Part shown: one piece after another, positions 12,420 to 13,560 of the stretch
Numbering within the stretch: the first letter of the stretch is position 1
Layout: the number at the start of each line of letters is the position of its first letter
NCBI GenBank assembly: GCA_028534125.1
Contig: CM052851.1
Coordinates: 38,936,001 to 39,000,000 of the forward strand
Direction of reading: 5' to 3'
From: Lama glama
Lineage: Eukaryota
DNA: 64,000 nucleotides
Notes under the pieces: model-generated
What the model was told of the DNA's origin: nothing
The model's input: only the letters and a program-made list of their open reading frames with translations
Databases searched by the model: none
Made by a program: the position numbers and the translations under genes

Positions 12420-13560
12420 GCTTTTTAAAAACTTCTTAATTTTAAATAATTTTAGACTTGCATAAAAGCTGCAAAGACAGTAGACATTCCCCTAGTCTTA
12501 TGTAACTATGGTACATTTATCAGCTAGGAAATTAACATTGGTATACTGTAAACTAGACTTTGAGTTTCATTAGTCTTTCCTGGTGAGGTCCTTTTCCTAT
12601 TCCAGGATCAAATCCAAGATCCTACATTAAATTTAGGTGTTGTGTCTTAGTCTCCTCCAGTCTATGGCCATTCTTCAGTCTGACTTTGTCTTTTATGACC
12701 TTGAGACTTTTTTTTTTTTTTAGATGGAAGCATCAAATTATATTTGTATATATAAATTGATATATATTTTGTATAAAAAGAAATAAAAACATGAGAGCAA
12801 AAATTTATCAAAAGCCAAGCCAATCTGCAAGAAGAAAAGAATTTTTAGTAGCATATAATAGATGAAATTAAAACTCAACATATGCATCAGAGAACAGATA
12901 AAACCCAGGAAAACACAGAATTAGTGTGGTAGGAAAAAAAAGATCTGAATAAACATCCCAGAATATAGCATAAAAAGACTTGAAGGTGGAAAATAGAAAA
13001 TAAAGGTTGAAATACATGGAGAGCAGAGAGAGAAAGCTGACATACATCTACAGAGTAGGGACAATGGTATGGAAGCAATATTTCAAGAGACAATGCCTGA
13101 AAATTATTCAAAGTTCATGAAAGATACCAAACTAAATTCAGGAAGTCAACCAAATCCCAAATAGTATCAACAAAAAGAAATTCACAACTAGATATATATC
13201 ATGTATGACCTTGAGACTTTTGAGGAGGACTGGGCAGGTATTTTTTGTGTCCCTCAAGTTGGTTGGTTTGATGTTCTCTCATACTTAGATTGAGGTTGTG
13301 GATTTGGGAAAGGACCCTACAGAGGTGAAATGCTCTTCTCAGTGCTTTACGTCAGGGGTACATGACATACGTGTGCTTCGTACGAGGAATGTTAACGTTG
13401 ATCACTTGGTTAAGGTAATGTCTGCTAGGTTTCTTCATTGACAAGTTAACTATTTCTGCCTTTGTAATTAATAAATATTCTGAGAGAGATACTTTGAGGT
13501 TGTACAAGTATCTCATTTTTCTTTAAACTTTTACCCACTAAGTTTAGCAAAACAAAACTA
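12420..13560 (-). mobile_element. L1MB/MC-type 3' end, split by a younger retro-insert at 12712-13203
   Basis: Typical taattttagacttgcataaaagctgcaaag... and ...atgaccttgagacttttgaggaggactgggcaggtattttt... The sequence becomes contiguous once the insert and one TSD copy are removed. Confidence 0.75.
12712..13203 (-). pseudogene. L1-mediated retro-insert (retrocopy or orphan transduction) carrying antisense ancient L1 ORF1 sequence
   Basis: Perfect 18-bp TSD tatgaccttgagactttt (12694-12711 / 13204-13221) and poly-T 12708-12721 (poly-A on minus). The + strand cargo translates to EAIFQETMPENYSKFMKDT and IQEVNQIPNSINKKKFTTRYI, which are L1 ORF1-like. Confidence 0.8.

Follow-up and report, generated by a model that had tools for sequence, protein, structure and literature searches.

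The locus described here raises two linked questions: which RNA was copied into it, and was a source LINE-1 (L1) beside the template needed for the copying? The window, i.e., the whole stretch of 64,000 nucleotides that was analysed (Lama glama contig CM052851.1, C36 below, positions 38,936,001 to 39,000,000), contains a tailed insert flanked by a target-site duplication (TSD), whose cargo carries decayed L1 ORF1 sequence opposite to the tail (Table 1). From the letters of the window, the original prediction had proposed a young retro-insert, in which the L1 machinery recently copied the 3′ end of a non-L1 RNA containing an old antisense L1 piece; this RNA would have been either an mRNA or lncRNA 3′ UTR, or the flank of an active L1. 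Its description of the insert holds, the word "young" excepted. The two TSD copies are identical (18/18), cannot be extended on either side, and occur exactly twice in the window, for a chance recurrence within 1 kb expected at 2.4e-7. They are separated by 492 nt, while the cargo itself measures 482 nt. The minus-strand poly(A) tail is present, with 10 T beyond the TSD, as are the AATATA variant before it and the TTTT/GA target.

Table 1. Features of the insert and of its landing site on contig C36 (window coordinates)
Feature	Position	Strand	Remarks
Left TSD, 18 bp	12694..12711		Identical to 13204-13221 (18/18)
Right TSD	13204..13221		First base also templated by the donor, i.e., 1-nt microhomology at the 5′ junction
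Poly(A) tail, T14 on the + strand	12708..12721	-	4 T within the TSD, 10 non-templated
Cargo, 482 nt, RNA sense on the minus strand	12722..13203	-	Copy of G000:C6:378995-379476, 98% identity
Variant poly(A) hexamer AATATA	12739..12744	-	Ends 17 nt before the tail; putative signal
Decayed L1 ORF1 fragment, antisense to the copied RNA	13051..13198	+	Inherited from the donor intron
L1 endonuclease-like nick site TTTT/GA	13218..13223	+	By sequence; one base off the TTTT/A consensus given in the parts consulted of PMC5110952
Old dispersed host repeat, split by the insert	12497..13479		Empty site colinear, 66-74% identity, 8/11 paralogues

The landing site is equally clear. When the insert was removed by script, the alignment crossed the junction with a single TSD copy at 8 of 11 paralogous loci, these being the best 11 of 39 non-self matches, picked by the left flank alone. 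The host repeat, a putative L1M 3′ region, thus rejoins once the insert is taken out, as had been claimed. The scan for TSDs also returned three direct repeats of 14 nt whose inner edge is rich in A or T (11968-11981/18489-18502, 42907-42920/46666-46679, and 10400-10413/13192-13205), which are probably low-complexity chance matches. Over the ~104 kb around the insert, none of the 125 candidate exons proposed by a crude exon predictor matched Pfam. This falls short of proving that the site is intergenic, but no function is expected for the retrocopy, which has neither promoter nor open frame and is most likely inert.

The donor was found by searching the same genome with the cargo. Ten candidates were obtained, namely the window, one copy at 98% identity on the opposite strand of contig C6, and eight old-repeat matches, which reach 70-83% over 59-136 nt. 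It had been anticipated that such a search would reveal a single near-identical donor devoid of the TSDs and lying downstream of an intact L1 or at a transcript 3′ end: the donor exists without TSDs, but no young sense L1 was found in the 59 kb upstream. Its RNA sense is the + strand of C6, it carries neither TSD nor tail, and its flanks are single-copy (no near-identical second copy in the genome) and share no word longer than 4 nt. Between donor and insert, we count 8 internal substitutions (1.66%, 95% range 0.7-3.3%), besides a changed base at the junction and one 2-nt gap, and the cargo is colinear with the donor intron over its 482 nt, i.e., unspliced. Past the junction, the donor presents no A run longer than 4 within 20 nt, the A4 run sitting 3 nt away. 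We are highly confident that the L1 machinery copied an RNA of the + strand of this donor. The donor junction (L002:1975-1992, C6:~379469-379486) falls in a short A/T palindrome resembling an L1 nick site on both strands.

The donor lies inside a gene. An exon scan identified a signal-peptide-like exon at C6:374272-374378, of which 4/7 homologues are named TAFA2/FAM19A2, the other 3/7 being unnamed or hypothetical; a search of the ESM Atlas with this exon gave no usable match. Two exons encoding the TAFA domain are found on the + strand at C6:441141 and 442390, in a splice phase which fits that of the signal-peptide exon. These homologues, the common strand, and the matching phase place the donor 4.6 kb past the first coding exon of TAFA2, within the following intron (66,748 nt, with three 500-N gaps) and in gene sense. 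TAFA-domain matches are also scattered over numerous small unplaced contigs, frequently in identical pairs, a sign that the assembly may hold redundant or haplotype contigs. Concerning the origin of the RNA, the prediction of a non-L1 template is therefore upheld, while its alternatives of an active-L1 flank or a 3′ UTR are not borne out as worded: the donor is the interior of a TAFA2 intron, with no spliced exon or demonstrated 3′ UTR, and no young sense L1 was found in the 59 kb upstream of it. A TAFA2 isoform of 49-50 residues, in which another tail follows the first coding exon, is annotated in human, other primates, tiger, and cattle (F8VVD7 and orthologues; P0001, P0002, P0008-P0013). 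We considered its 49-residue form as the source RNA and rejected it, the 14-residue tail having no convincing counterpart in C6:320001-470000 (+ strand scores of 23-26 at best); here this tail is lost, diverged, or within a gap.

The antisense L1 content that first drew attention to the locus has an ordinary explanation. Both peptides which had been quoted for the cargo were found on the + strand and match L1 ORF1 frames of the same genome at 30-52% identity (best E 1e-5), so that ORF1 does run antisense to the tail. With natural ORF1 frames as tblastn queries, the fragment aligns at 36% and 52% identity in two frames; in the donor, it forms one frame with one stop, and the old fragment ends inside ORF1. 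None of the short ORF1 peptide pieces submitted to Pfam was matched (0/4). This antisense ORF1 is incidental content of the intron, an old L1 fragment copied along with its surroundings. The 5′ end of the insert lies within about 5-16 nt of the end of the donor ORF1 homology and 3-4 nt after a CAG (L002:1485-1510), next to a MIR-like stretch. Two readings of this neighbourhood were rejected. The first, in which the donor would itself be an insertion, as the ORF1 homology stops near the insert 5′ end, conflicts with the absence of a flanking repeat and with contigs from a relative that span both ends. The second, a cryptic splice acceptor at the CAG, meets a short pyrimidine tract and a proximity estimated to be at chance level.

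The direction and age of the copying were examined with runs aligned to the donor, i.e., the DNA runs X6 and X7 (organisms C and D) and the RNA-labelled X15 and X16, or 4 of the 24 listed (RNA runs X17-X20 and DNA runs X1-X5 and X8-X14 were left aside). X6 and X7 show 0 differences from the donor flanks. On the donor, they are split into three contigs (1240-1529, 1500-1942, and 1913-2600), the middle one of which begins exactly at the insert 5′ boundary and carries insert alleles, two in X6 and one in X7. The depth of this middle contig is 1.57x that of the flank, where a homozygous second copy should give 1.67 and a heterozygous one 1.33. A second copy is present in the DNA runs of these two other organisms (2/2), as seen from the donor side. 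The insert alleles, contig breaks, and depth make the copy older than the separation of these organisms, and in this assembly and the two others, a small sample with near-homozygous depth, the insert appears fixed and not polymorphic.

X15, at 3.3% from the donor, and X16, at 3.5%, serve as an outgroup (a ~3.4%-diverged relative). This relative's contigs cross both donor boundaries, which identifies the donor as the older locus. At the 5 covered donor/insert differences, the outgroup agrees 4 times with the insert and once with the donor, the 3 others being uncovered; at 5 further sites, donor and insert are identical and the outgroup differs; the 2-nt gap is derived in the insert. By these alignments, the insert keeps ancestral alleles since lost by the donor. 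The partition of the outgroup (4 with the insert, 1 with the donor, and 5 sites shared by the pair) gives an insertion age of about half of the outgroup split by overall divergence, with a range from one fifth to the whole. If the present genome is that of a South American camelid and the relative is an Old World camel, with a split of ~16-17 My, the insertion would date to roughly 8 My (3-17 My). The insert is thus a retrocopy, as proposed, but not a young one: with 8 internal differences, a copy in 2/2 other organisms, and ancestral alleles retained, it is likely millions of years old. The perfection of the TSD is no sign of youth, since its survival over 18 bp is expected at the insert/donor divergence (P = 0.74).

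What was the RNA, and why did it end there? We consider it probable that the insert is a 5′-truncated, L1-made copy of the 482-nt stretch of TAFA2 intron, taken from an RNA cut and polyadenylated at a cryptic intronic signal. This RNA would have started at the TAFA2 promoter; its end would lie ~5.1 kb downstream of the first coding exon and 17 nt beyond AATATA, where an old L1 presents its T-rich antisense strand. The L1 ORF2p would then have nicked TTTT/GA within the C36 repeat, used the poly(A) for priming, and halted once 482 nt had been copied. This event may be placed in a germ cell or early embryo, since the insert is inherited, and germ-line transcription of TAFA2, a gene known mainly from brain, is assumed. 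The insert would imply the existence, in the germ line or embryo, of TAFA2 intron RNA that probably bore a poly(A) tail.

The signal itself has changed since. AATATA is found in the insert and in the outgroup runs and is ancestral, while the present donor reads AATACA; both are weak variants of the poly(A) signal. Between the TAFA2 exon and the donor site there are stronger hexamers, the canonical AATAAA twice and ATTAAA once, so that the source RNA must have read through them. T content around the site is 45% downstream versus 51% upstream, and a T-rich downstream element is not diagnostic here. Contigs of X16 run through the site and that of X15 passes it by 38 nt, neither with an A-rich loose end; such RNA-labelled contigs from the relative cannot show RNA ends or strand and may hold DNA. 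The loose ends of X16 resemble adapter sequence, presumably a template-switch adapter, which suggests that X16 is a cDNA library. We infer the 3′ end of the source RNA at this site from the fossil that the insert constitutes. Literature searches, thin in subscription papers, found nothing on TAFA2 intronic polyadenylation, on FAM19A2 together with testis and spermatocytes, or on retroposed products of intronic polyadenylation.

An unspliced RNA ending at the site would encode 46 residues. We can tentatively go further, to a possibility that we regard as doubtful: the insert might be a datable relic of a hitherto undescribed TAFA2 isoform from the germ line or early embryo, encoding only the signal peptide plus 11 residues, with a poly(A) site provided by the ancient antisense L1. 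If so, the change from AATATA to AATACA in the donor may have altered the site, and the retrocopy would record an extinct RNA end.

The RNA need not have begun at the TAFA2 promoter. The same L1 copying could have used a non-coding RNA of ~0.9 kb started within the intron, for instance from the antisense promoter of an old L1 5′ region ~340 nt upstream. L1 antisense promoters are known from human and mouse work. Here, C6:~378494-378656 is an L1 5′ region in antisense, whose paralogues L061 and L062 continue into ORF1 in L1 sense, and an antisense promoter at this place would point at the donor. However, this old L1 is broken and at most 81% identical to its paralogues, the CpG observed/expected ratio of the region is about 0.2, and the TAFA2 transcription unit already spans the donor on the same strand, all of which leaves this origin unlikely.

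The other candidate source is an active L1 that an ancestral haplotype once carried upstream of the donor and that was then lost, which would make the insert a true orphan 3′ transduction. The anatomy of the insert is by itself compatible with both origins, and, in the parts consulted of PMC12350158, any tailed insert mapping outside exons receives this label; moreover, a polymorphic source L1 would leave no trace. We searched C6:320001-420000 with L1 queries from the same genome, taken from gapped or partial reference loci and covering ORF1, both ORF2 ends, and the 3′ end, but not mid-ORF2. Among the matches in C6:320001-379476, the 59 kb upstream of the donor, none was a young sense L1: no match reached 90% identity, and none in sense exceeded ~240 nt. 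Every sizeable match there is antisense and at most 88% identical, and those in sense are short and old (70-73% identity at distances of 14 and 30 kb, and one of 140 nt at 86%, 54 kb away). The single upstream gap (337485-337984, 500 N) is 41 kb from the donor, beyond the TAFA2 exon, and no sister retrocopies were found for the neighbouring intron parts searched (about 5 kb in all). With no young sense L1 in these 59 kb, transduction by a source L1 is not supported by the assembled sequence, and we judge it quite improbable. On the other side of the donor, a young antisense L1 3′ end (L014, G000:C6:383580-384549, 91-97% identical to paralogues) adjoins a 500-N gap 4 kb downstream; together they are probably a collapsed young L1, which, being downstream and antisense, is on the wrong side and strand for a source.

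A polyadenylated RNA might also be dispensed with, if the enzyme had started inside intron RNA that bore no tail, with the short A run past the junction as its priming site and T14 arising by slippage. The A4 run lying 3 nt past the junction and the weakness of the hexamer lend themselves to this, but it calls for ~3 substitutions and an expansion by 7 nt, where a real tail takes a single change, and it leaves aside the variant hexamer at the expected 17 nt before the tail, so that we hold it to be very unlikely. Almost certainly wrong are a DNA-level duplication (a break-repair patch of the class 2 type), in spite of the colinearity of the cargo with genomic DNA and the 1-nt microhomology at the 5′ junction, as the 18-bp TSD, non-templated tail, and T-rich nick site are features absent from class 2 in the parts consulted of PMC5110952, and the twin-primed young L1 that the original prediction named as a finding against itself, as the cargo matches no young L1 family, its non-donor matches reach 70-83% only, and no young L1 3′ UTR lies in sense beside the tail.

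The preferred reading, an L1-made copy of TAFA2 intron RNA, belongs to a known kind of event. A 5′-truncated processed pseudogene shares with the insert the enzyme, the TSD, the tail, and the truncation, but differs from it in that the cargo here has no annotated exon or splice junction. Closer are the class 1 templated sequence insertions described by Onozawa and Aplan (PMC5110952), which, in the portions of that paper available to us, have a TSD, a poly(A) tail, and an L1 target site, with intronic non-annotated templates included; humans are said there to carry 25-30 templated insertions each, some with intronic templates, and insertion at TTTT/A is a preference of class 1 polymorphisms (TSIP). 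The likeness, as far as these portions go, extends to a TSD of at least 5 bp (here 18/18); to 10-40 non-templated A (here 10 beyond the TSD, the donor having at most A4); to a cryptic signal 10-30 nt before the tail (here the variant AATATA at 17 nt); to an intact, unique, and distant donor at 95% identity or more (here one at 98% on another contig); and to a T-rich L1 nick site, an intronic template, and L1 ORF2p acting on a non-L1 RNA. Unlike TSIPs as presented in the same portions, which are polymorphic, the insert appears fixed across related organisms, and it further departs from them by AATATA instead of AATAAA, TTTT/GA instead of TTTT/A, and a non-human genome. Hence, it works like a class 1 insertion, but its apparent lack of polymorphism keeps us from filing it as a TSIP.

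Orphan L1 3′ transductions, in the parts consulted of PMC12350158, are likewise tailed and TSD-flanked without a companion young element, and the operational label given there (at least 75% outside exons) applies here, the whole cargo being intronic; unlike them, the insert has no source L1 in the 59 kb searched upstream of its donor, which is in the sense strand of the host gene. It therefore fits the operational but not the mechanistic definition of an orphan transduction. An insert that pipelines would label orphan transduction need not have a source L1. Ejima and Yang are said to have reported in 2003, as trans-mobilisation, the retroposition of a gene-internal sequence by way of a cryptic poly(A) site, from a donor lacking an L1; reportedly, an exon was carried and read opposite to the gene, unlike the present insert, which has no exon and an RNA in gene sense. 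Retrocopies of this kind are already known and ordinary, and the TAFA2 case is a clean donor-insert pair, in which the insert may serve as a presence/absence lineage marker.
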